Part shown: positions 11,401 through 37,830 of the stretch, in pieces | Position numbering within the stretch: the first letter of the stretch is position 1 | How the letters are laid out: every line of letters starts with the position of its first letter | Assembly: GCA_022820805.1 (NCBI GenBank) | Contig: JAJEEV010000037.1 | Coordinates: forward strand, 71,923 to 135,922 | Direction of reading: 5' to 3' | Source of the DNA: Acidimicrobiia bacterium | GTDB taxonomy: Bacteria > Actinomycetota > Acidimicrobiia > Acidimicrobiales > Aldehydirespiratoraceae | DNA length: 64,000 nt | Program-made: the position numbers and the translations under genes | Notes under the pieces: model-generated | The model's database searches: none | What the model was told of the DNA's origin: nothing | Seen by the model: only the letters and a program-made list of their open reading frames with translations

Positions 11401-11405
11401 GATGC

Positions 11406-11415
11406 CTGTATACAG
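11406..11415. promoter_or_regulatory. Perfect palindrome CTGTATACAG in a 47-nt divergent intergenic region (candidate operator)
   Basis: One of four TGTATAC-core palindromes found in catabolic promoter regions of this window. Confidence 0.35.
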
Positions 11416-11447
11416 CATTCGGATCGACGCCTGAACCGTTACGGCCC

Positions 11448-14829: not shown

Positions 14830-15252
14830 TCAGGCGAGGGCGGCTTGAAGGCCGGCGGCGTACTTCTTGCGCTGGGCCTTGACCATCATCGGCACGAACG
14901 GCCGCATGACGATCCACGGACCGGACGGCGTCATCTCGAGGTCCATGGTGATACGGGTGCCGCCGTCGCCGGTGTCGCTGAGCCGGTAGGTGCCCGCCAC
15001 GGGCCACGATGTTTCCTCGGCGCACACCCAGGTGATCGACGAACCGGCCTCCACGGCGGTGATGCGGAACTCGACCTCCTGGCCGCGGTTGGTCTGGCGG
15101 TAGACGGCTCCCACCGTGCCGGCGGTGCCCGACGTCAGCTCGCAGGTGCCGATGTCGTGGCGCCACTCGGCCTGGTTGGCTGCCTCGGCCAGGTAGGCGA
15201 ACGTCCGCTCCCGGTCGGCGGCCACATCGATCTCGACAGTGCAGGTGCTCAT
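14830..15252 (-). CDS. SRPBCC (polyketide cyclase/dehydrase-like) protein
   Basis: 140 aa; ATG overlaps the upstream stop (ATGA at 15249-15252); last gene of the operon. Confidence 0.65.
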   Translation of the reverse strand: MSTCTVEIDVAADRERTFAYLAEAANQAEWRHDIGTCELTSGTAGTVGAVYRQTNRGQEVEFRITAVEAGSSITWVCAEETSWPVAGTYRLSDTGDGGTRITMDLEMTPSGPWIVMRPFVPMMVKAQRKKYAAGLQAALA

Positions 15253-16193
15253 GCGGTGGAACCGTACCGGCCTTCGGCCCGCTGGTGGGCGAGAGTGGCG
15301 ATCACCACGTCCTGGAGCGCCACCCCCTGCGACTCGAACAGCACGATGCCGCTGCCGGGTTGCGGCGGGGTGACCGTGCCTGCGATCACGTCGGCCAGGT
15401 CGGCCAGATCGTCCCAGTCGAAGATCCCGTCGGCCGCGGCGTGTGTCAGGTCTCCGGCTTCGGTGCGGGCCCCCTCGGCGCTGTCGCTCACCACGAAGGA
15501 GGCCCGCTCCACGGTGGCGCCGTCCACCTCGCGGCGGTCCGCCTTGGTGGATCCCACCGCGCACACCAGCGCGCCGTCGTGCAGCTTGGTGCCGTCGAAG
15601 ACGGGGGTGTAGCTGGCGGTCACGGTGGCCACCACCGCGGCGCCGGCGACGGCCTCGTCGGCGTCGCCGACAGCTCGGGCCGGGATGCCGCGGTCCCGAC
15701 CCCAGGACGCCACATCCTCGGCCTTGTCGGGATTGCGGCCCCACACCCGCAGGTCGCGCAGCGGCAGCTCCTGGGCCAGGGCCTCCAGGTGCGGCCTGCT
15801 CTGGATGCCGGTTCCGAACACGGCCGCAGTGCCGGCGCCGGGCGGCGCCATGTGCCTCACGGCCAGCGCGGAGGCCGCCGCGGTGCGGATGGCGGTGAGG
15901 CCCAGCCCGTCGAAGGTGGCCACCAGGCCTGCATCGGGGCTGAACAGGCCCACCAGGAAGGCGAACCCGTCGGGATGGGTGAGGTAGAGCTTGCCGCCCA
16001 CCACCCGGTGCCGGGGCCACGACGCGGCCATGGCGCTGCCCATCAGCCCGCCGGCTGCGGCCCGCACCCGCAGGGTGGTGGCCGCCTCGCCCGAGCCGAG
16101 GTCCCGCCAGGCCTGCTCCAGCCAGTCGGTGACGGTGGCCAGGTCGCACAGCTCGGCGATCCGCTCCTCGGTGTAGTGGGGCACAGCGCTCAT
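15249..16193 (-). CDS. Ornithine cyclodeaminase / mu-crystallin family protein
   Basis: Family-typical length and pattern (AAVFGTGIQSRPHLEAL Rossmann region, VCAVGSTKADRREVD). Confidence 0.85.
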   Translation of the reverse strand: MSAVPHYTEERIAELCDLATVTDWLEQAWRDLGSGEAATTLRVRAAAGGLMGSAMAASWPRHRVVGGKLYLTHPDGFAFLVGLFSPDAGLVATFDGLGLTAIRTAAASALAVRHMAPPGAGTAAVFGTGIQSRPHLEALAQELPLRDLRVWGRNPDKAEDVASWGRDRGIPARAVGDADEAVAGAAVVATVTASYTPVFDGTKLHDGALVCAVGSTKADRREVDGATVERASFVVSDSAEGARTEAGDLTHAAADGIFDWDDLADLADVIAGTVTPPQPGSGIVLFESQGVALQDVVIATLAHQRAEGRYGSTA

Positions 16194-21910: not shown

Positions 21911-23443
21911 TCACAGGGCTAGGGCGGCGCCTCCCGAGCGGGGGTCGCTGGCCAGCTCGACCTCGGTCCGGCTTCCGTGGCCGGCGGTGCTCGAACCGGT
22001 GACCACCTGCAGACCGCCGCCGACGTTTGCGCTGGCGCGCACCTCGTAGCCGGACAGGCGGGCGTCGTCGCGCCATTCGATGCCGGGTTCCGCGAAGGCG
22101 TACCACGGCTGGCCGATCCCGGCGGGCACGCCGAAGCGGTCGCCGGTGGGGCAGACGAACCAGCGGGACCCGGACGCGATCTCGGCTGTGTCCGCCCCCC
22201 TCCGGAAGCGCTGGATGGCCTGGGCCAGCCACTGCACCTGCCGGTCGCCGCCCGGCGTGGCCAGTGTCATCCAGCCCGGTCCGGAGCGGCGCCGCACGTG
22301 AGCCGCGCTGAGCGTGTGGGGCAGGACCGCACCGGGTCGGGGGTTGCAGGCGGGCAGGTCGGCACGGTCCGACAGCGCGGTGCCCACCCGGTTGCTGAAC
22401 GCCACGCCGGTGTCGCCCGCCACCCAGCCGGTACCGAACTGCACCCCGGCGAGGCTGTGGACCACCGTCGCGGAGAGCCCGTGCCGGTCCAGCGCGGTGG
22501 CCACTGCGGTGCCGGAAGCCAGTGCCGGACCCTGCCGGCAGAACTCGGTGAGCTCGTTCTGGGCGAGCGGCGCGGTCGCCTCGGCGTACTCCCGCGATGC
22601 CGGGTCGGCGCCCGGTGGCGCCGTGGCCAGCAGCGCCGCAGTGATGGCGGCCTGGCTCGGTGCCGGCGTCAGCCATCCCTCTATGTCTTCGAGTTCGAAG
22701 TGCCGGGCCGGCTCGACGGCCGCTTCCACCGCCTGCAGGTCGTCGTGGGTCAGAGCCGCACCCTCCCGGCTGGCCGCGGCCACCAGCCGGTCGGCCAGCT
22801 CGCCGCGGTAGAAGGCGTCGGGTCCTCGCTGCGCCACGGTCTCGAGGGTGGCCGCCAGGTCCGGCATGCGGATGGTCGCGCCCTGCTGAGGCGCTTCGTC
22901 GGCCCCCAGCATCCTTTGCAGAGCCTGGACGTGGCCCCGGCTCTCCACCCGCCGGTACACGTCGGCCATGCGGGCCGTCACGATGTGGCCTGCGGCCGCG
23001 GCTCGGGCGCCGGTGAACAGCTCAGCCCAGTCGAGGCGCCCGTGGGCCTGCCAGGCCGCTTCCGCGCCCCGCAACGAGCCGGGTACCACCGCGTTGCGGG
23101 GACCGCTGGTCGGCGGCCACGGACCGCTGTCTCCGTCGCCTGCCGCCGCCGGGGCCCGCCCGTCGCGGTCTGCTGGAGCCGCCCGGCCCAGCGGCGTCCG
23201 CGACCAGCCGCCGTAGGCCTGCACACCGGAGTCGGTCCGGTCGTCCCCGGGGGCCACCAGGGCCACCATCTCCCCGCCGGGGCCGCTCTGGGGGGCGTTC
23301 ACAACCCACTGGGTGAACGCTGCGGCCAGCACGGCATCGACCGCCGAGCCGCCGCTGCGCAACGCCTCGATCCCGGCCTGGGTGGCCAGCCGGTGCCCGC
23401 TGGCGACCCCAGCCGCCCCGCTCACCGACCGGGCGGGCTGCAT
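21911..23443 (-). CDS. Gamma-glutamyltransferase family protein
   Basis: N-terminal GHRLATQAGIEALRSGGSAVDAVLAAAF and overall GGT-like pattern; starts 7 nt after the AAA ATPase stop. Confidence 0.8.
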   Translation of the reverse strand: MQPARSVSGAAGVASGHRLATQAGIEALRSGGSAVDAVLAAAFTQWVVNAPQSGPGGEMVALVAPGDDRTDSGVQAYGGWSRTPLGRAAPADRDGRAPAAAGDGDSGPWPPTSGPRNAVVPGSLRGAEAAWQAHGRLDWAELFTGARAAAAGHIVTARMADVYRRVESRGHVQALQRMLGADEAPQQGATIRMPDLAATLETVAQRGPDAFYRGELADRLVAAASREGAALTHDDLQAVEAAVEPARHFELEDIEGWLTPAPSQAAITAALLATAPPGADPASREYAEATAPLAQNELTEFCRQGPALASGTAVATALDRHGLSATVVHSLAGVQFGTGWVAGDTGVAFSNRVGTALSDRADLPACNPRPGAVLPHTLSAAHVRRRSGPGWMTLATPGGDRQVQWLAQAIQRFRRGADTAEIASGSRWFVCPTGDRFGVPAGIGQPWYAFAEPGIEWRDDARLSGYEVRASANVGGGLQVVTGSSTAGHGSRTEVELASDPRSGGAALAL

Positions 23444-23450: not shown

Positions 23451-25526
<2,076 letters not shown>

Positions 25527-25566: not shown

Positions 25567-26058
25567 CTAGCCGTGCTGGGCCTGCCACTCCGGGCACGGC
25601 TCGAGCACGTCCATGGCGACGCCGCCCTCCGGGCTGATGGCCGAGTCGAGGTTGGCCCAGCACACCAGCATCCGGGTGGGCCCCACCCCCGTGTTGAAGT
25701 GCTGGTAGGTCACGCCCGACTCCCTGATCGGGATGGCGATCACGTCGCCCTCCTCCCATTCGTGGGCCCGGCCGTCGAGCACGGTGTGGCCGCTGCCGGC
25801 CATCACGAAGTGGATGATCCCGCCCTGGCAGTAGAGCTTGCCGCTGTTGGATCCCTGCGGGATCTCGAGCTCGTGGAAGTACAGGGCCCTGGTGCTGGGG
25901 GTCTCCAGGTGGGGGTGCAGGTACCACCGCATGGTCCCCATGCGGTTGAGTTCGGGCTCGCAGTCCTCGCGGCCGATCAGGTTCTTGGCCGCGGCCCGGC
26001 GGTCGCGCTCGGCCCGCGACTCTGCGAAGGTCTTGTCGTAGAGCGTCTGATCAGCCAT
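25567..26058 (-). CDS. Cupin protein (C-terminal-like half of a split bicupin dioxygenase; lacks HxH)
   Basis: Cupin core GKLYCQGGIIHFVMAGSGHTVLDG..WEEGDVIAIP; ATG 26058 overlaps upstream gene by 8 nt. Confidence 0.7.
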   Translation of the reverse strand: MADQTLYDKTFAESRAERDRRAAAKNLIGREDCEPELNRMGTMRWYLHPHLETPSTRALYFHELEIPQGSNSGKLYCQGGIIHFVMAGSGHTVLDGRAHEWEEGDVIAIPIRESGVTYQHFNTGVGPTRMLVCWANLDSAISPEGGVAMDVLEPCPEWQAQHG

Positions 26059-26677
26059 CGCCGGCCCTCTCGCCGATGATGCGGGTGACGGCCACGATCG
26101 GGTCCTCGGCGGCGTCATCGGAGCCGTCGCCGCCGTCGTCGCTGCCGGTGTCCTTGGCCGCCATCTCCCGCCAGTTCGACTGCTCCTTCACCTGGGCCAG
26201 CATCGAGCCGGTCTGGAACAGGAAGGGGATGTAGATGAAGGCGATCCACTGCGAGCTCTGGGAGTCGTCGTAGTTGAAGTGCTGGTGCTCGACGCCGCCG
26301 GGCTTCACCGGCAGGATCAGCAGGTCGCCGGGCTTCCAGTGGTACTCGACCCCGTCGAACACGCTGTAGCCCGCGCCCCGGGTCACGTAGATCACCAGCC
26401 CGCCCTGGTGGGTGTGGGCCCCGGACTCGGTCTGGATGTCCTTGCGGAACACCATCCAGTCCTGCACGGCCCGGTTCTCGGCCCGCATGTGCAGGTAGTA
26501 CTTGCTGCGGCCCTGGCGGGACTGCTGCCAGGGCAGGTCCTTGCCCTTGATCACGACCTGGCCGTCGTTGGCCAGGTCGCGCCTCTCCTTGAACGTCGAG
26601 AAGAACACCTCGTAGGGGTGGCGGTCCTCCTCGCTGCGGTCACGCTCCCGCAGCCGCGTCTGCTCTCGTTCGACCAT
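26051..26677 (-). CDS. Cupin protein (gentisate 1,2-dioxygenase-like catalytic half)
   Basis: Cupin metal motif SGAHTHQGGLVIYVTRGAGYSVFDG..WKPGDLLILP..HQHFN; start at MVEREQ. Confidence 0.7.
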   Translation of the reverse strand: MVEREQTRLRERDRSEEDRHPYEVFFSTFKERRDLANDGQVVIKGKDLPWQQSRQGRSKYYLHMRAENRAVQDWMVFRKDIQTESGAHTHQGGLVIYVTRGAGYSVFDGVEYHWKPGDLLILPVKPGGVEHQHFNYDDSQSSQWIAFIYIPFLFQTGSMLAQVKEQSNWREMAAKDTGSDDGGDGSDDAAEDPIVAVTRIIGERAGDG

Positions 26678-26747
26678 CGCTTGCAGTCCTGTCTGTTGGT
26701 TTGGTGCTACTGGGCGCACGGCAGCGCCCCGGCCCCGGCGCAGGAAG

Positions 26748-27944
26748 TCAGGCTGCCATGCGCAGGAATCGGGTGGCGTTGCCTGAGAACAGTTTCTCGC
26801 GTTTGGCGCCGTCTTCAATGCCCCATGCCAGCGCGGCTCCCGGTGAGTCGGGGAAACGGCACTGGGCGTGGGGGAAGTCCGACTGGTACATGAGCACGCC
26901 GTCGCCGAGCACGCTGTCGACGTAGTCGTAGATCTTGCGGCCCTCGTACAGCTCGATCCCGCAGTAGACGTGGCCGGCCTGCGCGTACTCCGAGGGCAGC
27001 ATCGACAGTGCCGGGCCCTTGCTCTTGAGGTGGCGGGACTGGCCGTCGAGGCGCAGCAGCCACTCCGGCAGCCATCCGCAGCCGGTCTCGGAGAACCCGA
27101 CCCGGAAGTTCGGGTGCCGGTCGAACACGCCCGACAGCAGCAGGTAGGCCAGGCGCAGTTGCGCGCCCCACGGGTGGGCCGCGGTGCGGGCCACCACGAT
27201 GTTGTCCCAGACGTCGCGGTATCCGGGGAAGTAGGGGGGCTCGTAGAAGAACGAGTGGTGCAGCAGCGGCAGGTCGGCGGCGGCCATCGCGGCCCAGACG
27301 GGCTCCAGGTCGGGATCGTCGATGGGGTAGCCCTCGGCCAGCGCCAGCATGGCCCCGGCCACCGACGGCTGGTCGGCGCACTCCTCGATATGGCGCACCG
27401 ACCATTCGACGTCCTCGCCGGTGAGTTGCAGCAGGCTCTTGAGCCGGCCGGTGTCGATGGAGCAGAAGTCGTCCATGTAACGGGCGTAGGACTCGTACAG
27501 CCCGGTGGCCACGTCGGTGGGGCAGACCGTCACCGACTGGGGCCAGGTGCCGGGGATCAGCAGGTGGACGTCGACGCCCTCGCGGTCCATGTCGGCGATG
27601 CGGCCCTCGGCGTTGTCGTGGCCGACGCCGTAGCGGGGGGAGTCCTCGGTCACCACCAGGCCCCGGATCTTGCCCTCGAGGGCGGCCCGGCCACCCGCGC
27701 CCAGCTGCTCCTCCAGGTGCGACTTCTCACCGATCTCGCGCAGGTAGCCCCGAGGCTCGATGCTGAGGTTGGTCCACGGGCCCTCGGGGTCGCCGTAGGT
27801 GAGCGGCAGCTCCACCCGGCGCTCGTAGTGGGCCAGCTCGTCGTCCCAGCGGTCGAGCAGTCTCCGGTCGGCGTAGCGCTTGAGCACCTCCACCGACGGC
27901 CACACATGGGTGTCGGTGTCGATGATGGTCAGCCCGTCGCGCAC
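26748..27944 (-). CDS. Amidohydrolase_2 (ACMSD-like decarboxylase/hydrolase) family protein
   Basis: IIDTDTHVWP N-terminal metal motif, family-typical C-terminus (YQSDFPH); AGGAGGAG before GTG. Confidence 0.8.
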   Translation of the reverse strand: MRDGLTIIDTDTHVWPSVEVLKRYADRRLLDRWDDELAHYERRVELPLTYGDPEGPWTNLSIEPRGYLREIGEKSHLEEQLGAGGRAALEGKIRGLVVTEDSPRYGVGHDNAEGRIADMDREGVDVHLLIPGTWPQSVTVCPTDVATGLYESYARYMDDFCSIDTGRLKSLLQLTGEDVEWSVRHIEECADQPSVAGAMLALAEGYPIDDPDLEPVWAAMAAADLPLLHHSFFYEPPYFPGYRDVWDNIVVARTAAHPWGAQLRLAYLLLSGVFDRHPNFRVGFSETGCGWLPEWLLRLDGQSRHLKSKGPALSMLPSEYAQAGHVYCGIELYEGRKIYDYVDSVLGDGVLMYQSDFPHAQCRFPDSPGAALAWGIEDGAKREKLFSGNATRFLRMAA

Positions 27945-28020: not shown

Positions 28021-28132
28021 TTTGCTCCGGCACGCTTAATCGGGACCGGATATCCCCAGCTAACGGGGCCTATGGGCCGGCGTTCGGCTCGACAACGACC
28101 GCGTGCGCCGGTGGGCGTGGCAGGCTGATCCG

Positions 28133-29245
28133 ATGCGGGTGGTTGTCATAGGTGCCGGGATTGCCGGCGCGGCCGCGGCCTGGCATCTGGCTGAGCACGC
28201 CTCGGTCGTCATGGTCGAGCGGGAGGCACACCCGGGCGCCCACGCCACCGGCCGGTCCGCCGCCCTGCACACCGAGACTTCGGGCGCCCCGGTGGTCAGC
28301 GCGCTGGCCGCGGCCAGCCGCCCGTTCCTGGTCGAGCCGCCCGACGGGTTCGCCGACCATGAACTGCTGTCGCCCCGGGGCCTTCTGTGGATCGCCCGGG
28401 CCGGCGAGCAGGACCGGCTGGAGGACAAGGCGACCGCCGCCGAGGCTCACGGGGTGGAGGTCCATCGCCTCGACTCGTCCCGATGCTGCGAGCTGGTCGG
28501 CGTGCTCCGCCCCGAGGCTGCGGTCGCCGGGGTCTTCGAGCCCGGTGCCATGAACATCGATGTGGACGGGCTCCTGCAGGGGTTCATGCGGGGTGCTCGC
28601 CGCCGGGGCGCCGAACTGCATGTGAGCGCCGGGGTCACAGCGCTCACGCCCCGGACCGGCGGTTGGCGGGTTGAGGCGGGCGACCAGCTTTGGGACTGCG
28701 ACGTGGTGGTGAACGCGGCGGGGGCGTGGTGCGATCCGGTTGCCGAGTTGGCCGGCGTGCCGCCGTTGGGCCTGAGGCCGCTGCGGAGATCGGTGTTCGT
28801 GTTCCCCCCGCCGGAGGGCGTCTCCGTTTCGGGCTGGCCGATGGCGTGGGACATCGGCAACCGCTTCTACTTCGAGCCGGAGGGACCGATGCTGCTGGTG
28901 TCGCCCGTCGACGAGACCCCGAGCGAGCCCTGCGACGCCCGGCCGGAGATGGAGGACATCGCCCTGGGGGTCGAGGAGCTGGAAGCGGCCACCACCCTCG
29001 AGGTCCGTGGAGTGCGCCGCACGTGGGCCGGTCTGCGCACCTTCGCCGCCGACAGCGTTCCCGCGGCCGGCTTCGACCCGGACCATCCGGGCTTCTTCTG
29101 GCTGGCCGGCCAGGGCGGTTACGGCATCAAGACGTCACCGGCGCTCGGGCGGCTGTGCGCGGCCCTCATCCTGGGCCAGGAGCCGCCGCTGAGGCCTGAT
29201 GACGTGAAGGCGCTGGACCCGGCCCGCTTCCGAGCCCGCGCCTAG
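28133..29245 (+). CDS. FAD-dependent oxidoreductase (DAO/glycine oxidase-like)
   Basis: MRVVVIGAGIAGAAAAWHL dinucleotide-binding motif; C-terminal GQGGYGIKTSPA. Confidence 0.8.
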   Translation: MRVVVIGAGIAGAAAAWHLAEHASVVMVEREAHPGAHATGRSAALHTETSGAPVVSALAAASRPFLVEPPDGFADHELLSPRGLLWIARAGEQDRLEDKATAAEAHGVEVHRLDSSRCCELVGVLRPEAAVAGVFEPGAMNIDVDGLLQGFMRGARRRGAELHVSAGVTALTPRTGGWRVEAGDQLWDCDVVVNAAGAWCDPVAELAGVPPLGLRPLRRSVFVFPPPEGVSVSGWPMAWDIGNRFYFEPEGPMLLVSPVDETPSEPCDARPEMEDIALGVEELEAATTLEVRGVRRTWAGLRTFAADSVPAAGFDPDHPGFFWLAGQGGYGIKTSPALGRLCAALILGQEPPLRPDDVKALDPARFRARA

Positions 29246-29259
29246 AGGCGTCGCCCCTC

Positions 29260-29396
29260 AGAGGCCGAGCGGATAGGCACGCGAATCCGGCCCATACGGG
29301 CGAGGCCGTGGCCCGAGCGGCCCGTGAGCGCAGCGAACAAGAGCGGGAATGACCCCGCCACACCGCGACCGGCCCTCACTTATCCGCGTGGCCCCT
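29260..29396. mobile_element. MITE-like dispersed element, copy B
   Basis: Terminal inverted repeats AGAGGCCGAGCGGATAGG / CTTATCCGCGTGGCCCCT (14 of 18 complementary); 53-nt core 29301-29353 identical to copy A; 9-nt direct repeat GCCCCTCAG at 29253 and 29391. Confidence 0.55.
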
Positions 29397-29408
29397 CAGG
29401 CCGCGGGG

Positions 29409-29780
29409 TCAGTCCTCGTCGTCCGGGTCGGCGAGCGGCAGTCGGGTCACTTCCACCGGGTCGTGCTCCGCCACATCGTGGTGCCGGCTGCTGGTGATGA
29501 GCGAGCGGGCCACGGCTCGGGCTGCAAGCTCCTCCAGGTCGTCGCGGCGCGGGTCGGTGAGGTAGGCCTCGACGGCTTCACCGGTGGGGAATGACAGCAC
29601 CAGCACGGTGTCGGGGGCGCGGCGGCCGGTGGCAACTTCGCTGGCCCTGCGCTCGGTCCTGCCCTCATGCTCGCGCGCCAGCTTCAGCAACCGCCGCACG
29701 TACTTCTCGAACTGGCGCTTCGACCCGCTGCGCCAGAGTCGGAGAGTCAGCTCCACTCGCTGGTCGGCGACGGCGTTCAC
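29409..29780 (-). CDS. Small protein, tentatively DUF1330-like (dimeric alpha/beta barrel)
   Basis: High GC3; LVLSFPTGEAVEAYLTDPRR resembles the DUF1330 FPS..a..wy.sp.Y pattern; 36 nt downstream of the FrhB-like gene. Confidence 0.5.
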   Translation of the reverse strand: MNAVADQRVELTLRLWRSGSKRQFEKYVRRLLKLAREHEGRTERRASEVATGRRAPDTVLVLSFPTGEAVEAYLTDPRRDDLEELAARAVARSLITSSRHHDVAEHDPVEVTRLPLADPDDED

Positions 29781-29816
29781 GTACCGATTCTAAGTGCTGG
29801 CCGCTGCGGGGAATGG

Positions 29817-31016
29817 CTAGTGCAGCCGGGCGGCCCGGCGGCTGGCGCCGGCCCGCTCGTGGTCGAAGTGCTCGGGGTCCAGTCGCCGTCCGAGCTCCTC
29901 GATGCGCAGGCCCCGGGTCTCGATGGGGGCGACGCCGGAGTCGGCCAGGCCCTGGTAGCGGGCCGCCAGCGCCTCCTTCTTGCGCACCTGGTGGGGCTGG
30001 AAGTCGTCGAACTCCCCGGTCGTGATCGGCCCGCCGAGCACCAACTCGCCCGCGGTCACCGCCGAGGCCACCAGTTCCTCGCCGGCCGCGGTGCGCACGA
30101 TGATCCCGTTGAACCCCTCGTCCTCGCCGGTGGGGGCGCCGCCGGGCCAGATGTCGGCCGCGGCCACGTCGGCGGCCTCGCCCAGGGCGTCGGGGCAGAA
30201 CTTGCAGCGGGTCTCGACGTCCCAGCCGGCCTCGTCTTCCCACAGCTCCAGATACGTCTTGGAGAACCGGCGCCCGTCGAGGGTCTCCACCGCCGTGGGC
30301 CCGGGGTTGCCGTGCCCCCGGTACCGGAACAGGGCCAGATCGTCCTCGTCGAGGTCGAACTCGTCCAGCACGGCCTGTGACTTCGACAGCCGCGACTGGC
30401 CGCCGCACACCAGGGCTAGGCGGAGCGTGCACAGCTCGTCCACCCGGGGGTCCGACCTCGACAGCGAGTGCACCGCGCCCAGGTCGCAGGGCTTGGCGAT
30501 GATGGCGAAGGGCTGGCCCCGGTCCAGGGCGGCGGCCATGCCCGCCAGCGGCGCCGTCGGCCCGTAGCGCGACCCGGTGCTGGCCCTTACCGACTCCGGC
30601 GTCTCCGAGATCACCCAGCGGCTGCGCATCGGCTGCTGCGGGTCGGCGCCCACGTGGAGCACGAAATCGACCCGGCCGGTGTCCAGGGCGTGCATGCCCA
30701 GCGCGGTGAGCACCCCGCCGGTGGCGGCCTCGTAGCGCACGTCCGGATCGCCGGCCCAGGCTCGGGCCATCGAGCGGAAGGCGCCCCACACCGGGTCGGT
30801 GCTGTTGCCGTCCTCGACCCGGGCCTCGGCCACCGCGCCCGGGCAGGCCTCCACCAGCAGGGCCTCCTCGCGGGCCGTGAAACCGTCGGCCGGCGAGGGT
30901 CGCAACGATCCGGCGGAGGTCATGGCCATCTTGACCCGGCCCCCGCTGAGCGCCTCGCACAGCCCGCAGCCGATACACATGTCGGTGGCGACGATCTGGG
31001 CGATGGTGTGCTTCAC
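29817..31016 (-). CDS. Coenzyme F420 hydrogenase/dehydrogenase beta subunit (FrhB/FdhB)-like protein
   Basis: N-terminal Fe-S motif CIGCGLCE, GGVLTALGMHALDTGRVDFVL, IAKPCDLGA, C-terminal KFCPDALGEAADVAAADIWPG. Confidence 0.75.
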   Translation of the reverse strand: MKHTIAQIVATDMCIGCGLCEALSGGRVKMAMTSAGSLRPSPADGFTAREEALLVEACPGAVAEARVEDGNSTDPVWGAFRSMARAWAGDPDVRYEAATGGVLTALGMHALDTGRVDFVLHVGADPQQPMRSRWVISETPESVRASTGSRYGPTAPLAGMAAALDRGQPFAIIAKPCDLGAVHSLSRSDPRVDELCTLRLALVCGGQSRLSKSQAVLDEFDLDEDDLALFRYRGHGNPGPTAVETLDGRRFSKTYLELWEDEAGWDVETRCKFCPDALGEAADVAAADIWPGGAPTGEDEGFNGIIVRTAAGEELVASAVTAGELVLGGPITTGEFDDFQPHQVRKKEALAARYQGLADSGVAPIETRGLRIEELGRRLDPEHFDHERAGASRRAARLH

Positions 31017-31071
31017 GTTCGGCCGGTTCAGAGGTCGCGGGCCGCGATCTCCGCGATGGTGCGGCCGGCGG

Positions 31072-31860
31072 TCATCCCAGCGTCGACAGGAGGTGCCCGT
31101 AGCCGGGCGCGGCGGCCAGCCCGAGATGCTTGAGCATGGCCCAGTAGAGGGCCCCGTCGGAGGCCACCAGGGGCGTGCCGGTGTGGCCCTCGACCATGTC
31201 CAGCACCCGCACCATCCGCATGCCGGCTCCGGTCTGCACGATGGCGTCGGCCTGCGGGGCCCGGGCGTGGGCGTCGACCGCGGCCGCGAACATCATGTGG
31301 TCGGGGTAGTCCCACAGCGTCTCGTCCTCGAGTCGCAGCATCTCGTCGTGGTCGGCGACGAAGCCCTGGTCGATGATGTTGCCGGCCCACAGCACCCGGA
31401 ACCCGGCCGCCTCCAGGTAGCCGTTGATGCCTGCGGACCAGTCGGGCCGGAAGTATCCGTTGGCGATGGTGATCGTCTCGGCGCCGAGCTCGCGCAGGCC
31501 CTCCACGATGGCCTGGCCGGCCATCACGAACGGCGCGCCCGCCTTGGCCGAGATGTCGGCGCAGATCCGCTCGATGTCGCTGGGGCTGGTGCCGGTGCAG
31601 TGCACCCAGTTGGTGCCCACCTGGCCGATGACCTGGCAGTAGGAGCGGCCCAGGCAGACGGCCGACTCCTCCAGCACCCCGAAGTTGCGGGCCCGCTCGT
31701 CGAGGGTGTACTCGTAGCTGTCGATGTGGTTGACCCGCTGGATGATCCCGGTGCCCGGCGGGGCGACCTTCACGAACTGGCTGGGCGAGTCGTCGAAGAA
31801 CTGCGGCGTGGTCACGAACCCCGCAAAGGCCCGGTACTGGCGGCGCGCCGATGAGTCCAT
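31072..31860 (-). CDS. Asp/Glu/hydantoin racemase superfamily protein (maleate isomerase / arylmalonate decarboxylase-like)
   Basis: AAGGGGAG 7 nt before ATG 31860; family-like pattern with two conserved Cys regions (ESAVCLGRS, NWVHCTGTS). Confidence 0.7.
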   Translation of the reverse strand: MDSSARRQYRAFAGFVTTPQFFDDSPSQFVKVAPPGTGIIQRVNHIDSYEYTLDERARNFGVLEESAVCLGRSYCQVIGQVGTNWVHCTGTSPSDIERICADISAKAGAPFVMAGQAIVEGLRELGAETITIANGYFRPDWSAGINGYLEAAGFRVLWAGNIIDQGFVADHDEMLRLEDETLWDYPDHMMFAAAVDAHARAPQADAIVQTGAGMRMVRVLDMVEGHTGTPLVASDGALYWAMLKHLGLAAAPGYGHLLSTLG

Positions 31861-31941
31861 GGCCAGGCTCCCCTTCACGATCCGGTAGTCGGGCCGCACC
31901 TTATCCGCGGGAGCCGCCGCCCCTGACGAGAGCTAGGCCCG

Positions 31942-32286
31942 TCAGTCTGGCGTGTCGGGGCCTCGCTTGGCGGGCAGCTCTATGAAGATCTGGCCGTCGC
32001 GCACTTCCAGCGAGTAGCGGGGCTGGTAGCGCTCCCGGGCCGCGCAGTAGCCGGTGGTCACCTCGTAGGCCCACTGGTGGCCGGCGCACACGAGCCGGGT
32101 GCCCAGCATCACGCCCTCGGTCAGCTTGCGGCCCCGGTGGATGCACACGTTGGACAGCGCCACCGGCTCACCGTCGTTCCAGAGCAGCAGGATCTCGTGG
32201 CGGTGCAGGCTCACCACCAGCTTCCCCGCCGAGGCCAGGGCCTCCGCGGTGGCCTCGGTCTCGAACCATCCCCTCGGTGGCGCCAT
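31942..32286 (-). CDS. Rieske [2Fe-2S] ferredoxin
   Basis: 114 aa with CIHRG ... CAGHQW (CxH...CxxH). Confidence 0.85.
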   Translation of the reverse strand: MAPPRGWFETEATAEALASAGKLVVSLHRHEILLLWNDGEPVALSNVCIHRGRKLTEGVMLGTRLVCAGHQWAYEVTTGYCAARERYQPRYSLEVRDGQIFIELPAKRGPDTPD

Positions 32287-32315
32287 GGCCCGGTCCGTCC
32301 CCGCCCGTCAGCCGC

Positions 32316-32669
32316 TCAGCCGGTGCCGGCCCAGCCCGCCCGCGACCCGCCGCCGCTGCCCGGCTCGTCGTCGAGGCCGACCTGGTCGGGGTCCCAGCTG
32401 AAGGTCACGTCGCCGCGGGTGTAGGTCTGGCAGGCCAGGCGGTAGCCGGCATCCACCAGGTCGCCCAGCCGGGCCCGTTCTCTCCGTCGGGGCGGGTCGA
32501 GGTTCTCGGCCCCGTCCTCAACCAGCAGCCGGTCGGTGCCGCAGTTGCCGCTGGCGCACTGCCAGGGCACGTCGCAGTGCTCCCGGATGGCCATCCGCAG
32601 CACGTTGACCTCTTCGCCCTCGGCGAACTCGACGTAGCGGTCGACGGTCTTGAAGTAGATGCGCGGCAC
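32316..32669 (-). CDS. Fer2-type [2Fe-2S] ferredoxin-like protein with non-canonical ligand spacing
   Basis: QCASGNCGTD...LACQ: Cys38, Cys43, Asp46 (in place of the third Cys), Cys80, plus Cys32; AGAAGG before GTG. Confidence 0.6.
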   Translation of the reverse strand: MPRIYFKTVDRYVEFAEGEEVNVLRMAIREHCDVPWQCASGNCGTDRLLVEDGAENLDPPRRRERARLGDLVDAGYRLACQTYTRGDVTFSWDPDQVGLDDEPGSGGGSRAGWAGTG

Positions 32670-32705
32670 GCCTTCTGGAGCCCCGCGCCCGTGTTCCTGG
32701 CTTGA

Positions 32706-33455
32706 TCAGCCGACGAGCGCGGGCTGGCGCTCGTCCTCTTCCACCCACGGGCCGAGGTCGGGCTCGACGTACGTCTGGTACAGCGCCCTGGTGTAGGCGA
32801 AGCGCATGTCGGCCGCCTCCCGCACGTAGTGCAGGCACCGCTGCTGCAACTCGGGGGTGTCGGCGTACTTGAGCACGATCTGGTAGCCCCGCTCGCCGTG
32901 GATCTCGTCGGAGGTGATGTGCAGGTCGAAGAACTCGGCCTCCCACTCGGAGAACCCGTACTCGTTGATCAGGGTCGGGTACTGGGTGCGGTAGATGGAC
33001 GGGACCTGCGACTCCAGGCCGACGATCAGCGCGGCCGACGACACCACGAAGTTCTCCCGGCCCGACACGTAGTACATCCAGCCCTGCATGCCCTTGGCGA
33101 ACGGCATGGCGTTGTTGCGGTCCTGCACGTAGGCCCGGGTGCCGCCGCACGCCTCGGCGAAGCGGATCAGCAGGTCGGTGTGGCGGTCGTCGCTCAGCTC
33201 CTCCTCGTACATGTTCTGCAGCAGGAAGTCCTTGGCGTCGCGGGCGTGGTCGGGGGTGTTGGCGTACATGAGGCCGAGGTAGTCGCCGAACGGGCCGATG
33301 TAGTGGTAGTGGTTGGTGGCCCAGTGCACGAAGTGCTGCTTGTGCAGCTTGCCGGCGGCCCAGGCGCGGCTGAAGGAGGCGTCCTTGGCCATCGTGCCGG
33401 CGAAGGCCTGCTCGAGAGCCACTCGAAAATCGCTGTGGGACATCAGTTCAGCCAT
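32706..33455 (-). CDS. Heme-oxygenase-fold PqqC/TenA-like (iron-containing redox enzyme family-like) protein
   Basis: AGGAG 5 nt before ATG 33455; PqqC/TenA-like helical pattern (WAAGKLHKQHFVHWATNHYHY, YEEELSDDRHTDLLIRFAEACG, FFDLHITSDEIHGE). Confidence 0.7.
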   Translation of the reverse strand: MAELMSHSDFRVALEQAFAGTMAKDASFSRAWAAGKLHKQHFVHWATNHYHYIGPFGDYLGLMYANTPDHARDAKDFLLQNMYEEELSDDRHTDLLIRFAEACGGTRAYVQDRNNAMPFAKGMQGWMYYVSGRENFVVSSAALIVGLESQVPSIYRTQYPTLINEYGFSEWEAEFFDLHITSDEIHGERGYQIVLKYADTPELQQRCLHYVREAADMRFAYTRALYQTYVEPDLGPWVEEDERQPALVG

Positions 33456-33549
33456 GGCACTGCTCCTGGTTCGGCTGGTTCGGCTGCTAGGTGGGGGTTG
33501 CTGGAACGGAAGGGGCGCCGGGGAGAGGTCGGAATCCCCGGCGCCCGCC

Positions 33550-33561
33550 ATTGTATACAAT
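33550..33561. promoter_or_regulatory. Perfect 12-bp palindrome ATTGTATACAAT in divergent promoter region (candidate operator)
   Basis: 95 nt upstream of 33455 (minus operon) and 55 nt upstream of 33616 (plus operon); AT-rich palindrome in about 70% GC DNA. Confidence 0.4.
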
Positions 33562-33615
33562 ACTGAGCGTTCGGATCGGGCTCAAATCGGGCGGGCTCGG
33601 GAGACGGAGACGGCC

Positions 33616-34578
33616 GTGCACGAGACCCAGGTTGCCTTCTTCAGCGAGGGTGTCAAGCTGAGCGGGCTGCTCCGCTCCCCGGACCGGGTCGCCGGCCCGG
33701 CGCCGGCCATTGTGCAGGGACCGGGATGGCTCGGGCTCAAGGACGCCAAGCTCTACCTGCCGTACCACGAGGCCCTCACCGCGGCCGGCTTCCACGTGCT
33801 GATCTTCGACTACCGGGGCTTCGGCGACTCCGGGGGCGACCGGGGGATCCTGCTTCCCCAGTACCAGCTCGAGGACCTGGTCAACGCGGTCACCTACCTG
33901 TGCACCCGCGACGACGTCGACTCCGACAACATCGGGGCCTTCGGCAGCGGCGGCACCGGCGGCGGCAACGCGGTGCTGCTGGCCGCGGCCGACCGCCGGG
34001 TGCGGGCCGCGGTGTCGCAGGTGCCGGTGGCCGACGGCAGGGACTGGCTGCGGCGGATGCGCCGCGAGTACGAGTGGTACGAGTTCCTGGACCGCCTCGA
34101 GGCCGACCGCAACCGGCGGGTGCTCACCGGCACCGGCGAGATGGTCCATCCCCGCGAGGACATCATGGTCCCCACCCCCGAGCGCAGGGCCTCGAAGGTG
34201 AAGGCCGACGTCGACGACCGGATCCCGTCGTCGGTGCCGCTGCGCTGCGCCGAGGCGATCATGGACTACCGGCCCATCGACGTGGTCCACCAGGTGGCCC
34301 CGGCCGCGCTGATGATCATCGCGGTGGCCGACGACGCCACCACCCCCACCGACCACGCCGAGCGCCTCTACGAGCGGGCCAACGCCCCCAAGAAGCTGGT
34401 CATGCAGCGCCACACCACCCACTATGCGGCCTACAAGCAGTACGGCGACGCGGTGATCCCCCAGATGGTCGACTGGTACCGCACCCACTTCTGTGGCGGC
34501 GCGGTCGAGGTGCACGCCAGCACACCCGCCGAGCCGGCCGAGCTGCTGGTCAAGGACCCCGACGGCGCCTCCGGCTAG
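33616..34578 (+). CDS. Alpha/beta hydrolase
   Basis: GTG start after GGGAGACGGAGACGG; HVLIFDYRGFGDSGG, nucleophile region GAFGSGGTGG. Confidence 0.8.
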   Translation: MHETQVAFFSEGVKLSGLLRSPDRVAGPAPAIVQGPGWLGLKDAKLYLPYHEALTAAGFHVLIFDYRGFGDSGGDRGILLPQYQLEDLVNAVTYLCTRDDVDSDNIGAFGSGGTGGGNAVLLAAADRRVRAAVSQVPVADGRDWLRRMRREYEWYEFLDRLEADRNRRVLTGTGEMVHPREDIMVPTPERRASKVKADVDDRIPSSVPLRCAEAIMDYRPIDVVHQVAPAALMIIAVADDATTPTDHAERLYERANAPKKLVMQRHTTHYAAYKQYGDAVIPQMVDWYRTHFCGGAVEVHASTPAEPAELLVKDPDGASG

Positions 34579-34597: not shown

Positions 34598-35992
34598 GTG
34601 ACTTCTTCCTTGCCCACTGTCGACCGGGTCGTGGCCGGCGGCACTGTCGTGTCGGGGACGGGCACCCAGGTAGCCGACGTGCTGATCGCCGGCGAGCAGA
34701 TCGCGGCCATCGCCGCCCCCGGGGTGGTCCCGCTTCCCGATTCGGTCGAGCGCATCGACGCTGCCGGCAAGTGGGTTTTGCCCGGCATGGTCGACGTGCA
34801 CGTGCATCTGCGTGAGCCCGGCTACGTCCACAAGGAGGACATCTCCACCTGCACCGCCGCGGCCGCGGCCGGGGGAGTGACCACCGTGTTCGGGATGCCC
34901 AACCTGAACCCGGTCACCAAGAACCTGCAGGTGCTCGAGGAGCTGTTCGACCTCTACGACTCCAAGAGCATCGTGGACTGGAACCACAACCCGGTGCCCA
35001 GCGTGCTGCACGAGGTGGAGCCCATGGCCGGCGCCGGGGTGGCCGCCTTCAAGATCTACATGGTGGTCGACACCGGCCGCGACTACCCCCATCCCAGCGG
35101 CACCGGCATCCACGACCACGGCCACCTGCTGCGCATGTTCGAGGCCATCGGCCCCACCGGGCTGCCGTTCATGATCCACCCCCACGACCAGGCCATCATG
35201 GACGTCACCGAGCAGACCCACTGGGACCGGGGCGACCGCAGCCCGGCCGCCTACGCCCAGACCCTGGCCACCCACAACGGGCTGATCTGGGACGCCGCCA
35301 TCGCGGTGATCCTCCAGATGGCCGAGGCCACCGGCACCAAGCTCCACATCGTGCACATGCAGACCGAGGGCTCGGTCGAGCTGGTGCGCCGGGCCAAGGA
35401 GCGGGGCGTGCCGGTGAGCTGCGAGGTCAACCACTGGGCGCTGTTCCTGTCGCGCTGGCAGGACATCGAGAAGCTCGGCCCCTACGCCCTGTCGTACTGG
35501 GTGCCCGACCACCACCGCGAGGCTGTGTGGGGCGCCCTCAACGACGGCACTATCGACATGCTGTCGTCGGACCATGCCCCCCATACCCGGGCCGAGAAGG
35601 AGGTCGGGTGGGAGGACTGCTGGGCCTGCCACACCGGCACTCCCGGCATCCAGGAGCAGTACCCGATGCTGCTGGACTGCCACATGGACGGGATGATCTC
35701 GCTGCCGAGGGTGGCCGAGGTGGTGGCCGAGGAGCCGGCCACCGAGTTCAGGCTGCCGTCCAAGGGCTTCCTGCGGCCCGGCTACGACGCCGACATCGTG
35801 ATCTTCGACCCGAACGACCAGACCCGCCACTCGGCCGACACCGTGCTGTCGAAGTGCGGCTGGACTCCTTATGACGGCCGGGTCACCAAGGGCCGGATCC
35901 ATCGCACGATCGTGCGGGGCCGCGACGTGTACGTCGACCGCAAGGTGGTCGGCGAGCCCGGCTGGGGCCGCCTGGCCCGCCCCTCACTGTGA
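34598..35992 (+). CDS. Cyclic amidohydrolase (dihydroorotase/allantoinase/hydantoinase-like)
   Basis: GGAGG 8 nt before GTG 34598; PGMVDVHVHLREPG, GGVTTVFGMPN, SSDHAPH. Confidence 0.85.
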   Translation: MTSSLPTVDRVVAGGTVVSGTGTQVADVLIAGEQIAAIAAPGVVPLPDSVERIDAAGKWVLPGMVDVHVHLREPGYVHKEDISTCTAAAAAGGVTTVFGMPNLNPVTKNLQVLEELFDLYDSKSIVDWNHNPVPSVLHEVEPMAGAGVAAFKIYMVVDTGRDYPHPSGTGIHDHGHLLRMFEAIGPTGLPFMIHPHDQAIMDVTEQTHWDRGDRSPAAYAQTLATHNGLIWDAAIAVILQMAEATGTKLHIVHMQTEGSVELVRRAKERGVPVSCEVNHWALFLSRWQDIEKLGPYALSYWVPDHHREAVWGALNDGTIDMLSSDHAPHTRAEKEVGWEDCWACHTGTPGIQEQYPMLLDCHMDGMISLPRVAEVVAEEPATEFRLPSKGFLRPGYDADIVIFDPNDQTRHSADTVLSKCGWTPYDGRVTKGRIHRTIVRGRDVYVDRKVVGEPGWGRLARPSL

Positions 35993-36048
35993 CCCGGGCC
36001 GTGACCCGCGCTGTGACCCGGGCCGTGACCCGGGCTAGACCGTGACTC
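35989..36048. repeat. 12-bp tandem repeat GTGACCCGGGCC x4-5 that reiterates the stop codon
   Basis: Units at 35989, 36001, 36013, 36025 (+ degenerate 36037); the first contains the TGA of 34598-35992 and each later unit has an in-frame TGA. Confidence 0.8.
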
Positions 36049-36070: not shown

Positions 36071-37066
36071 ATGACTGACACTTCTGCCATGAAGTTCGGC
36101 CTGCTGATGCCCCATTTCGGCGGCCATGCCAGCCGCCGGGCCGTGCTCGACGGGGCCGTGCTGGCCGAGAGCTTCGGCTTCGACTCGCTGTGGGTGCGCG
36201 ACCACCTGGTGTTCGAGCCCCACTCCGAGATGGAGGCGGCCAACATCACCTTCTACGAGGCTCTCACCACCCTCACCGCCATCGGGGCGGTCACCGAGAG
36301 CATCACCCTGGGCACCGGTTCGCTGATCCCGTTCCGGCACCCGGTCCACACCGCCATCAGCATCGGCACCCTGTGCAACCTGGTCGGCGACCGGGTGGTG
36401 CTCGGCTTCGGGGCCGGCACCTTCGACCACGAGTTCGACGTGATCGACATGGCGGGCATCGACCGGGTGGGGCTGGTGCGGTCCAACGCCGAGATCCTGC
36501 GCCGCCTGCTGGCTGAGGACGGCGTCACCTACCACGACGACGTGTACTCCTTCGAGAACATCTCCATCGAGCCCAAGCCGGGGGCGCCGGTGCCGTTCTG
36601 GTACTGCGGGGCCACCCCCCGCTCGGCCCGCCTGGCCGCCGAGTACTGCGACGGCTGGATGCCGGGGCGCACCACCCTGCTCACCATCGCCGAGCGGGTG
36701 GCCACCATGCAGCGGATGACGGCGGACAACGGCCGGCCCATGCCGACGGTGGCGGTGATCCCGCCCACGTCGATCGCGGCCACCCATGACCTCGCTCTGG
36801 AGGGCGTGAACCTGGAGGGCCTGCTGGCGTGGGCCAACCTGCGGGGCAAGTGGTGGGCCAAGCCCCCGTCGGGCAGTTTCGCCACCGCCACCGACATCGA
36901 GGGCTCGCTCATCGCGGGCACCCCCGACGAGGTTGTCGAGCAGGTGGGGCGCTTCGCCGATGTGGGCGTGGAGCACCTGGTGTTCGACCTGCGCATGAAC
37001 TTCGACCGCTGGTTCGCCTCCGTCGAGCTGCTCGGCCGGGAGGTCCTCCCCGCCCTGCGAGCCTGA
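36071..37066 (+). CDS. Luciferase-like (LLM class) F420-dependent oxidoreductase
   Basis: AGGAGGA 10 nt before ATG; ESFGFDSLWVRDHL, LVGDRVVLGFGAG. Confidence 0.85.
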   Translation: MTDTSAMKFGLLMPHFGGHASRRAVLDGAVLAESFGFDSLWVRDHLVFEPHSEMEAANITFYEALTTLTAIGAVTESITLGTGSLIPFRHPVHTAISIGTLCNLVGDRVVLGFGAGTFDHEFDVIDMAGIDRVGLVRSNAEILRRLLAEDGVTYHDDVYSFENISIEPKPGAPVPFWYCGATPRSARLAAEYCDGWMPGRTTLLTIAERVATMQRMTADNGRPMPTVAVIPPTSIAATHDLALEGVNLEGLLAWANLRGKWWAKPPSGSFATATDIEGSLIAGTPDEVVEQVGRFADVGVEHLVFDLRMNFDRWFASVELLGREVLPALRA

Positions 37067-37263: not shown

Positions 37264-37830
37264 ATGACAGCAACCGCCCCCGCCCACCGGGTAGCGCCGC
37301 AAGTGACCCAAACCCCCGATCCGGACACACCCCCGCAATCGCAGGCCGCGGGCTCGGCCGTGGAGGCCGGGACCGCCAGGCCCAGGCTGCGAGACCAGAT
37401 CGCAGAGAACCCCCTGCTGAGCCTCGTCGGTGCATTGCTGACGCTCGGCGGCACTGCGATAGTCGCGCTGCTTCTCTTCACACTGACCAGCATCAACACC
37501 CGCATCGACGGTGTTGAGGTGAGCCTCGGTGACCGCATTGATCGTCTGGACGCGAGGCTCAGTGACCGTATCGATGGTGTTGTGGTGAGCCTCGGTGACC
37601 GCATTGACGGTGTTGAGGTGAGCCTCGGTGAACGTATCGATCGCGTCGAGATGAGGCTCAGCGCACGCATGGACCGCCTTGAGGACAAGATGGACGCCGG
37701 CTTCGCGGCCCAGGGCGCCGCGATCGCCGAGAACGACCGGAAGTTGACCGCGCTGGTCGCCATGCTGAACGTGACTGCTGAAGTCGACGCCGCGCTCGAA
37801 GGCAGGCTGCTGATCCCCGGCGGGAGCTGA
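37264..37830 (+). CDS. Membrane-anchored coiled-coil repeat protein (Pro-rich N-terminus, one TM helix, RIDxL repeats)
   Basis: GGGGAGAAG before ATG; TM LLSLVGALLTLGGTAIVALLLF; repeats SLGDRIDRLDARLSDRIDGVVVSLGDRIDGVEVSLGERIDRVE; RMDRLEDKMD resembles 56555-57067. Confidence 0.65.
   Translation: MTATAPAHRVAPQVTQTPDPDTPPQSQAAGSAVEAGTARPRLRDQIAENPLLSLVGALLTLGGTAIVALLLFTLTSINTRIDGVEVSLGDRIDRLDARLSDRIDGVVVSLGDRIDGVEVSLGERIDRVEMRLSARMDRLEDKMDAGFAAQGAAIAENDRKLTALVAMLNVTAEVDAALEGRLLIPGGS

Follow-up and report, generated by a model that had tools for sequence, protein, structure and literature searches.

Heme-oxygenase-like dimetal oxygenases (HDOs) are a fast-growing class of O2-activating dimetal enzymes, almost all of them studied in natural-product pathways and with chemical reductants in vitro. 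A 2026 review holds that none of the HDOs examined to date requires a protein effector (PMC13108848), and in the literature that we searched the only dedicated HDO-reductase pair is MboA/MboB of mangotoxin biosynthesis, reported in 2026 as possibly the first dedicated pairing of an HDO with a redox partner, with MboB as the NAD(P)H/flavin/[2Fe-2S] reductase (PMC13185094). Here we analyse a six-gene run in a 64,000-nucleotide stretch of an Acidimicrobiia genome (contig JAJEEV010000037.1 of assembly GCA_022820805.1; the whole stretch is called the window below), in which genes for a predicted HDO, a Fer2-type ferredoxin and a Rieske ferredoxin (the trio) are followed by those for an Amdase-like protein and a protein of the FrhB/FdhB family (the pair), and by one for a small DUF1330-like protein. 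A preliminary description of this DNA had read the run as a candidate F420-driven multicomponent oxygenase, with the FrhB-like protein as the entry point for electrons. We favour, with moderate confidence, the view that the run is instead the junction of two separable units, a multicomponent HDO oxygenase (HDO-Fer2-Rieske) and an independent Amdase-FrhB pair. Our literature searches on the trio and its neighbours returned no paper describing this HDO family or cluster.

The likeness to MboA/MboB is that a dimetal enzyme of the HDO fold has a protein as electron donor that is genetically tied to it, and it extends to proteobacterial homologues of the window HDO that are co-encoded with a reductase of the same class (Fer2-FAD-NAD, BenC/T4moF-like). 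The two systems differ in that the partners in the window trio are small ferredoxins that stand free, one of them a Rieske protein and the other a Fer2 with Asp as a ligand, with no reductase in the actinobacterial clusters, and in that the context of window-type HDOs is catabolic rather than a peptide natural-product cluster and the family, with 420 relatives, is widespread. A second comparison is offered by the four-component toluene/alkene monooxygenases (T4moH/C/D/F), where a Fer2 donor passes electrons to a Rieske protein of ~110 amino acids (aa) and on to a carboxylate-bridged dimetal hydroxylase; the proteobacterial HDO clusters resemble these further in having a Fer2-FNR reductase and a cofactor-less protein of ~110 aa at the effector position. 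However, the catalytic subunit in the window has a heme-oxygenase-like fold and not that of the ferritin-like alpha-beta-gamma hydroxylase, its Fer2 protein is free and not fused to an FNR module, and the window holds neither an effector nor a reductase; the Rieske component of a T4mo-type system is present.

The closest solved sequences and structures are those of the CADD and NE1434 p-aminobenzoate (pABA) synthases (1rcw, 8va9, 9pj4), with an identical six-ligand dimetal site, but the window HDO lacks their self-sacrificed Tyr and Lys, has dedicated redox partners and scores below the NCBIfam cut-off. The FrhB-like protein shares with FrhB, FdhB, FpoF, Fsr and HCAR the FrhB_FdhB_N and _C domains and the family set of [4Fe-4S] cysteines and, like FpoF and Fsr, has a ferredoxin-like cluster at the N-terminus. 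In contrast to FrhB, FdhB, FpoF and Fsr, it lies outside any hydrogenase, dehydrogenase or sulfite-reductase complex, and genes of its type stand alone, among varying sets of genes for small-molecule catabolism, in bacteria whose GC content ranges over 28-72%. Finally, AibH1H2/AibG and the SfbO-type amidohydrolase-related dinuclear oxygenases (AROs) are non-ferritin dinuclear oxygenases served by a small Rieske protein, and a candidate ARO is encoded 4 kb away from the trio; the window Rieske gene, however, co-varies with the HDO gene and not with that of the candidate ARO, an Amidohydro_2 protein.

A gene trio conserved across phyla

The window has a GC content of ~70%, and third-position GC in each of the six open reading frames (ORFs) of the run is 0.87-0.97, typical of real genes there. 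The genes occupy 29409-33455 in one direction with intergenic gaps of 29-81 nt, as the preliminary description had them, all on the minus strand (Table 1). The nearest relatives of the window are metagenome-assembled genomes of sponge-associated Acidimicrobiia ('Ca. Aldehydirespirator'), with HDOs 96-97% identical. The HDO start at 33455 matches those of 15 homologues, and about 8 nt upstream of the Amdase-like start at 31860 there is a ribosome-binding site, GAAGGGGAG. Profile searches upheld the earlier domain calls for the heme-oxygenase fold, Fer2, Rieske, the racemase superfamily and FrhB, the DUF1330 match remaining below its threshold; none of the six proteins received an equivalog-level NCBIfam assignment. 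A promoter and terminator scan of 29200-33800 gave no sites, an outcome that carries no information in an actinobacterium of high GC.

When 185,579 species were scanned with a pattern, each represented by one genome, 420 relatives of the HDO were confirmed. The best 80 of these 420 loci were fetched with 10-kb flanks and form the basis of the trio counts. The HDO, Fer2 and Rieske genes are all present in 76 of the 80 loci and almost always keep this order, with HDO identity down to 66%, and the Fer2 gene comes next after the HDO gene in 77. The hosts are Acidimicrobiia (Ilumatobacteraceae, Iamia, Microthrixaceae, Desertimonas), Mycobacteriales, Frankiales, Jatrophihabitans and Gemmatimonas. 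The HDO is thus genetically locked to Fer2 and Rieske across phyla, a linkage that one would look for in a multicomponent O2-activating enzyme, and to this extent the oxygenase of the preliminary description stands.

Families that recur beside the actinobacterial trio are aldehyde dehydrogenases, homologues of ornithine cyclodeaminase and imine reductase (OCD), HbpS-like proteins, MFS transporters, GntR regulators, gamma-glutamyltransferases (GGT), SnoaL and sometimes TauE; an OCD homologue is found in the window at 15249-16193. The GGT gene of the Ilumatobacteraceae is a distant one (26-30% identity), situated upstream of the trio in opposite orientation. A search of the window for an FNR-type reductase, by tblastn with the reductase of the Caballeronia cluster and by Pfam on about 45 window ORFs, found none, in agreement with the earlier remark that no ferredoxin reductase gene is recognisable nearby.

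Predicted metal site and iron-sulfur clusters

An AlphaFold2 (AF2) model of the HDO (pLDDT 92) has CADD as its top Foldseek match (1rcw, TM 0.80/0.92), and the matches to CADD, PqqC, UndA, HrmI, FlcD and BesC each have a probability of 1.00. By sequence the nearest solved proteins are again the pABA synthases and CADD (9pj4 at 5e-18; 1rcw). Residues E85, H92, E148, H179, D183 and H186 align with CADD E81, H88, E142, H174, D178 and H181, and all six (three His and three carboxylates) are invariant across 16 homologues. Judged by fold and ligand set, the protein is a dimetal HDO and a member of the HDO superfamily. The preliminary description had allowed that it might be an orthodox PqqC or TenA protein with no metal site; this was ruled out by the complete set of metal ligands and by the low score of the PqqC model TIGR02111 (39 bits against a cut-off of 240).

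In CADD, Tyr27 is sacrificed and Lys152 is the amine donor (Chlamydia trachomatis numbering). The window HDO has Ser29 and Gln158 at these positions, both invariant in the family, and although CADD is its best NCBIfam family, it reaches only 80.7 bits against the TIGR04305 cut-off of 200. With the sacrificial Tyr and the Lys absent and the score below the cut-off, assignment as a CADD-type pABA synthase was rejected as well.

All 78 Fer2 sequences have Cys38, Cys43 and Asp46, and 77 of them have Cys80; these four residues, quoted in the preliminary description, turn out to mark the family. Cys32, which it had listed with them, is not conserved (46/78). The canonical C-x4-C-x2-C...C set is therefore broken at its third Cys, which is Asp46 in 78/78 actinobacterial sequences. 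The window protein is orthologous (41-44% identity) to a proteobacterial ferredoxin, here Fer2b, in which the third ligand is the normal Cys. Escherichia coli SdhB has a known Cys3Asp [2Fe-2S] site, and by analogy it is plausible that the predicted Cys3Asp Fer2 binds a [2Fe-2S] cluster; a Cys3Asp [2Fe-2S] ferredoxin that is lineage-wide is unusual. The Rieske protein is a stand-alone ferredoxin of the ~110-aa kind with the expected cluster motif, CxH...CxxH (C48-I-H50...C67-A-G-H70), whose four ligands, already noted in the preliminary description, proved invariant in 77 sequences.

Proteobacterial homologues

Homologues of the HDO that are 60-63% identical occur in Caballeronia, Skermanella and Cupriavidus metallidurans CH34. 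Their clusters encode two small Fer2 proteins, of which one, Fer2b, is orthologous to that of the window, and a reductase of 334-343 aa with the domain order Fer2-FAD_binding_6-NAD_binding_1 (BenC/MmoC/T4moF class). The clusters also encode a protein of 107-116 aa with neither a Pfam match nor a cluster motif, which may be an effector-like component. Its gene lies between the two Fer2 genes (L087 8078-8428, minus strand; L088 10157-10480, plus strand), at the place taken by the Rieske gene in Actinomycetota. Further genes encode an aldehyde dehydrogenase most like alpha-ketoglutarate-semialdehyde dehydrogenase, an OCD protein, a GlcG/HbpS-like protein, a GntR regulator, transporters and, in Skermanella, TauE, so that the aldehyde dehydrogenase, OCD, HbpS-like and GntR families are common to these clusters and to the surroundings of the actinobacterial trio. 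As read from gene content, the electron supply of the proteobacterial clusters is NAD(P)H-linked and cluster-encoded, whereas the actinobacterial reductase is not in the cluster. Taken together, the gene content points to a multicomponent oxygenase that works in a conserved pathway of catabolism.

The Amdase-like and FrhB-like genes

Whether the pair accompanies the trio can be read from 68 informative trio loci, where the flank on the downstream side measures 2.5 kb or more. In 10 of them the pair follows the trio immediately, in 2 it is found at a distance of more than 2 kb, and in 56, comprising 22 very close relatives and all 34 distant loci, it is missing; the loci with both trio and FrhB (10-12/68) all belong to very close relatives. 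The preliminary description had itself named a gene order not conserved in relatives as evidence against its proposal, and for the order including FrhB this is what the counts show; the FrhB-like protein as the entry point to the oxygenase is accordingly not supported. At one locus, L018, the sequence corresponding to window 31957 to 29858 (2.1 kb) is replaced by 46 bp, a deletion that takes the Amdase gene and all of the frhB-like ORF except its last ~40 nt and leaves HDO-Fer2-Rieske-DUF1330 intact. The DUF1330-like gene, kept in about 20 relatives at 62-79% identity, directly follows Rieske at L011, L018 and L032, where Amdase and FrhB are missing, and at L022, where they are missing too, it follows Rieske and an unassigned interval of ~1 kb. 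It is absent at the distant trio loci.

The pair also leads an existence apart from the trio. In two genomes it stands well away from the trio, by about 45 kb in OY759762.1 and by about 150 kb in OZ244029.1 (loci L093 and L094 of the FrhB-like gene). In L093 (OY759762.1, whose trio locus is L009) and L095 (ERZ21830300:ctg717556c) we found a trio-less block with the order RHO-alpha (the alpha subunit of a Rieske oxygenase), SnoaL_4, (AMP-ligase), Amdase, FrhB and then DAO, Amidohydro_2, cupin, AAA and GGT, the Amidohydro_2 gene moving with its neighbours in both. The pair therefore belongs with the DAO/Amidohydro_2/cupin/AAA/GGT block in this clade and not with the trio. Orthologues of Amdase (72-74%) and FrhB (67-68%) are likewise found together in trio-less Ilumatobacter-type clusters (L081-L085), which contain DAO-GCV_T, Sulfotransfer_5, MR_MLE, M24 peptidase and RpiR genes and no HDO gene.

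A metagenome scan seeded with FrhB yielded 80 loci (37-100% identity to a member of the Ilumatobacter-type family, 28-72% GC), and in none of them was there a gene for an HDO, for a Fer2 of the window type, for a small Rieske protein or for a reductase of the FNR type. Their neighbours vary and include Sulfotransfer_5, Amdase, RHO alpha, SDR, class II aldolase, PEP-mutase-like, 3-hydroxyacyl-CoA dehydrogenase, Zn-dependent alcohol dehydrogenase and PurD genes; RHO alpha is near the FrhB-like gene in about 10 of the 80 loci and directly adjacent to it in L126, L144, L146 and L171. In the Acidimicrobiia contexts recovered the FrhB-like gene is usually accompanied by Amdase-like and/or Sulfotransfer_5 genes, with no obvious electron-transfer role. 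Sulfotransfer_5 (PF19798) lies between or beside the Amdase-like and FrhB-like genes at L081, L084, L094, L099, L152, L155, L159, L162 and L172, an arrangement that suggests a functional unit of three genes; the window has no Sulfotransfer_5 gene.

The FrhB-like protein belongs to its family at the level of Pfam domains, fold and conserved [4Fe-4S] cysteines, with C14, C17, C20 and C58 and C177, C204, C271 and C274 invariant in 16 sequences. The CIGCGLC motif pointed out in the preliminary description thus holds, as part of an extra N-terminal cluster motif, CxxCxxC...CP. The AF2 model (pLDDT 73) has as its top Foldseek matches the F420-reducing modules 8riu_B (6e-18), 8rja_E, Frh and Fsr, and also the ferredoxin-dependent HCAR (5dqr), an F420-independent protein whose match is about as good as those of the F420-dependent proteins of the family. 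Curated models of F420 enzymes score far under their cut-offs: PRK09325 gives 53 against 269 bits, frhB 40.5 against 331.5, and the FpoF models 36 against 444 and 31.5 against 475. Homologues are encoded on plasmids of Pseudomonas sp. MPC6 (48%) and Rhizobium gallicum (42%), where they adjoin M24 peptidase, MR_MLE and betaine or ectoine ABC-transporter genes. To our knowledge neither genus makes F420.

The best PDB match of the Amdase-like protein is 4IX1, a 'hypothetical protein' (1.7e-35), and maleate isomerase matches weakly (1e-7). Maleate isomerases and Asp/Glu racemases of the two-thiol mechanism have a conserved catalytic pair of Cys; here there is no invariant Cys among 28 homologues of 32-91% identity, in an alignment that includes paralogues. 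Together these observations lean away from a classical maleate isomerase.

Gene surroundings

Table 1. Genes of the six-gene run and of the adjoining block: positions in the window, strand and principal matches.
Feature	Position	Strand	Match
HDO (heme-oxygenase-like dimetal oxygenase), predicted catalytic component of the trio	32706-33455	-	Pfam Haem_oxygenas_2 PF14518, 108 bits; also TENA_THI-4
Small [2Fe-2S] Fer2-type ferredoxin (predicted), Asp replacing the third Cys ligand; second trio member	32316-32669	-	Pfam Fer2, 29 bits
Rieske ferredoxin, 114 aa; third trio member	31942-32286	-	Pfam Rieske PF00355, 48 bits
Amdase-like protein (Asp/Glu-racemase superfamily); first gene of the separable pair	31072-31860	-	Pfam Amdase, 56 bits
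FrhB/FdhB-family flavo-iron-sulfur protein; second gene of the pair	29817-31016	-	FrhB_FdhB_N PF04422, 67.5 bits; FrhB_FdhB_C PF04432, 79.6 bits
Small DUF1330-like protein	29409-29780	-	Pfam DUF1330, 20.3 bits, under the cut-off of 23
FAD-dependent DAO-family oxidoreductase	28103-29245	+	Pfam DAO, 189 bits
Amidohydro_2 protein, ARO-like	26748-27944	-	Best PDB matches 8SM8, 8SM7, 8SM9, 8SM6 (SfbO group), then PtmU3, AibH2

The DAO gene lies between the six-gene run and the Amidohydro_2/cupin/AAA/GGT block, in opposite orientation to the genes that flank it, and it keeps this position in relatives with or without the trio. The Amidohydro_2 protein starts with 'DTDTH' instead of the usual HxH, and AROs, not decarboxylases, are its best PDB matches; with this protein the block may have a second dinuclear enzyme that activates O2. 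The two cupin genes (25567-26118 and 26051-26818, both minus) overlap by 68 nt in their longest ORFs, and the real start of the upstream one, which has a weak match to 5-aminosalicylate 1,2-dioxygenase, is probably downstream of the longest-ORF start. In all close relatives the catabolic block ends with a CDC48-like double-AAA ATPase gene (23451-25526, minus) and a GGT gene (21911-23443, minus).

Farther away, an ORF at 35-1834 (plus) is an apparent fusion of ETF beta-like and alpha parts (ETF and ETF_alpha), followed by LLM and amidohydrolase genes. The three LLM genes counted in the preliminary description are indeed there (1895-2761, 10420-11418 and 36071-37066), but the one that was tested falls short of the NCBIfam cut-off for F420-type LLM proteins, with 146.6 bits against 166.9. 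A 12-bp tandem repeat, GTGACCCGGGCC, is present in 3.9 copies at 35987-36036, between the stop codon of an Amidohydro_1 gene and the start codon of an LLM gene, and at 37504-37659, between LLM and CoxG/CoxMSL molybdenum-hydroxylase genes, there is a tandem repeat of 33/66 bp (3.7 / 2.4 copies, 76-81% matches).

Discussion

In the scheme that we propose for the trio, the electrons would come from a reductase whose gene lies elsewhere; a ferredoxin reductase that depends on NAD(P)H, like that of the proteobacterial homologue clusters, is the most plausible candidate. From there they would pass to the Asp-ligated [2Fe-2S] Fer2, on to the Rieske protein and thence to the dimetal site of the HDO. 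The reduced HDO would then activate O2 and oxidise a small nitrogenous metabolite. The neighbouring genes (aldehyde dehydrogenase, OCD, GGT, TauE) suggest a loose substrate class rather than an assignment, namely a cyclic or secondary amine or an amino-acid derivative, whose hydroxylation next to N might yield an aldehyde. The Amdase-FrhB pair, on the other hand, would be an independent unit of a flavin/Fe-S oxidoreductase and a racemase-superfamily protein, and not an obligate partner of the HDO. In the sponge-associated Acidimicrobiia it would belong with the DAO/ARO-like Amidohydro_2/cupin/AAA/GGT block, and in Ilumatobacter-type genomes with a betaine-like or N-methyl-amino-acid catabolic cluster. 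As hydride donor or acceptor the FrhB-like protein might use F420, NAD(P)H or, as in HCAR, the substrate itself.

Several points weigh against this separation of the run into two units. Trio and pair run in one direction, only 81 nt apart, both in the window and in 10 or more close relatives, and no terminator was detected between the Rieske and Amdase-like genes in a scan that is uninformative at high GC; co-transcription and a lineage-specific functional link of trio and pair are possible. Clustering of the genes neighbouring the actinobacterial trio loci brought up no FNR-type reductase, leaving the electron source to be inferred. Moreover, the trio-less copy of the pair is again downstream of an oxygenase gene (RHO alpha) with no visible reductase, and the recurrence of RHO alpha beside metagenomic FrhB-like genes is compatible with a role of the FrhB-like protein as a reductase. 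The oxygenase role of the HDO family is itself a prediction.

Of the other explanations, the one that survives best keeps the FrhB-like protein as a dedicated reductase in this lineage, with hydride passing from F420H2 to FAD and electrons from there through two [4Fe-4S] clusters to Fer2, Rieske and the HDO; in a broader form it would be a generic reductase for Rieske-centre-dependent oxygenases. It would account for the tight co-directional spacing of the six genes and for the want of an FNR-type reductase in the window and at the actinobacterial trio loci. It also suits a fold that matches F420-reducing modules and has invariant Fe-S cysteines, and it finds company in the reductase-less RHO alpha subunit that the pair follows in the trio-less block and in the RHO alpha genes directly adjacent to FrhB-like genes in the metagenomes. 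We nevertheless consider it unlikely. FrhB is missing from most informative trio loci, including every distant one, and was cleanly deleted at L018 with the trio intact, none of the metagenomic FrhB-like loci has the trio, and the usual partners in Acidimicrobiia, Amdase and/or Sulfotransfer_5, are not electron carriers. A Fer2-FNR reductase serves the proteobacterial HDO clusters, the scores against the NCBIfam equivalogs of FrhB and FpoF lie far under the cut-offs, and HCAR matches about equally. Lastly, homologues of 42-48% identity sit on Pseudomonas and Rhizobium plasmids and others on contigs of 28% GC. F420 as the specific donor is in our judgement less likely again than the reductase role as a whole. 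We regard as improbable the further idea that the FrhB-like protein is, in sponge-associated Acidimicrobiia, a new kind of oxygenase reductase that would take hydride from a donor such as F420H2 to one-electron carriers, be interchangeable between the HDO trio, as in the window, and Rieske oxygenases, as at L093, L095 and several metagenome loci, and stand in for the proteobacterial FNR-type reductases.

There is also a slim chance that the ARO-like Amidohydro_2 protein, which would then be of the AibH2/SfbO type, is the sole or an additional client of the Rieske and Fer2 proteins. AROs were found through co-encoded small Rieske proteins (PMC10811679), the best PDB matches of the Amidohydro_2 protein are AROs (8SM6-9, PtmU3 and AibH2), and its gene is in a syntenic block only 4 kb from the Rieske gene. 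Against this, the Rieske and Fer2 genes remain with the HDO gene in nearly all of the 80 trio loci, no Amidohydro_2 gene recurs near the trio in 42 distant loci, and the Amidohydro_2 gene itself remains with Amdase-FrhB-DAO in the two trio-less blocks.

That the HDO is a self-sacrificing CADD-type pABA synthase of the folate pathway, with ferredoxins that merely re-reduce its cofactor, is very improbable in spite of its closest solved relatives and best NCBIfam match, given the two invariant replacements (Tyr27 to Ser29 and Lys152 to Gln158), the low family score and the catabolic surroundings (GntR, transporters, aldehyde dehydrogenase, OCD).

An association with picolinate degradation (the pic pathway), with the trio replacing the 6-hydroxypicolinate monooxygenase PicB, was considered because the surrounding Mo-hydroxylase, Amidohydro_2, alpha/beta-hydrolase and maleate-isomerase-like genes suggested it, and was dropped as unsupported. 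Nothing ties the trio to this pathway, and the conserved neighbours of the trio in other taxa are different; PicB is described in the paper on the pic pathway as a classical four-component Rieske oxygenase.

The reading that we favour, an HDO oxygenase with its own ferredoxins beside an independent Amdase-FrhB pair, bears on both families. For genes of the FrhB family in aerobic bacteria it means that they should not be taken as markers of F420 without further evidence. For the HDOs it points to a predicted family, conserved across phyla, that would be tied to electron carriers of its own in a catabolic setting. Since Cupriavidus metallidurans CH34 and Caballeronia carry the system, it is tractable for work on the physiological reduction of HDOs and on their possible gating by an effector, and the HDO module could lead to a new catabolic reaction.

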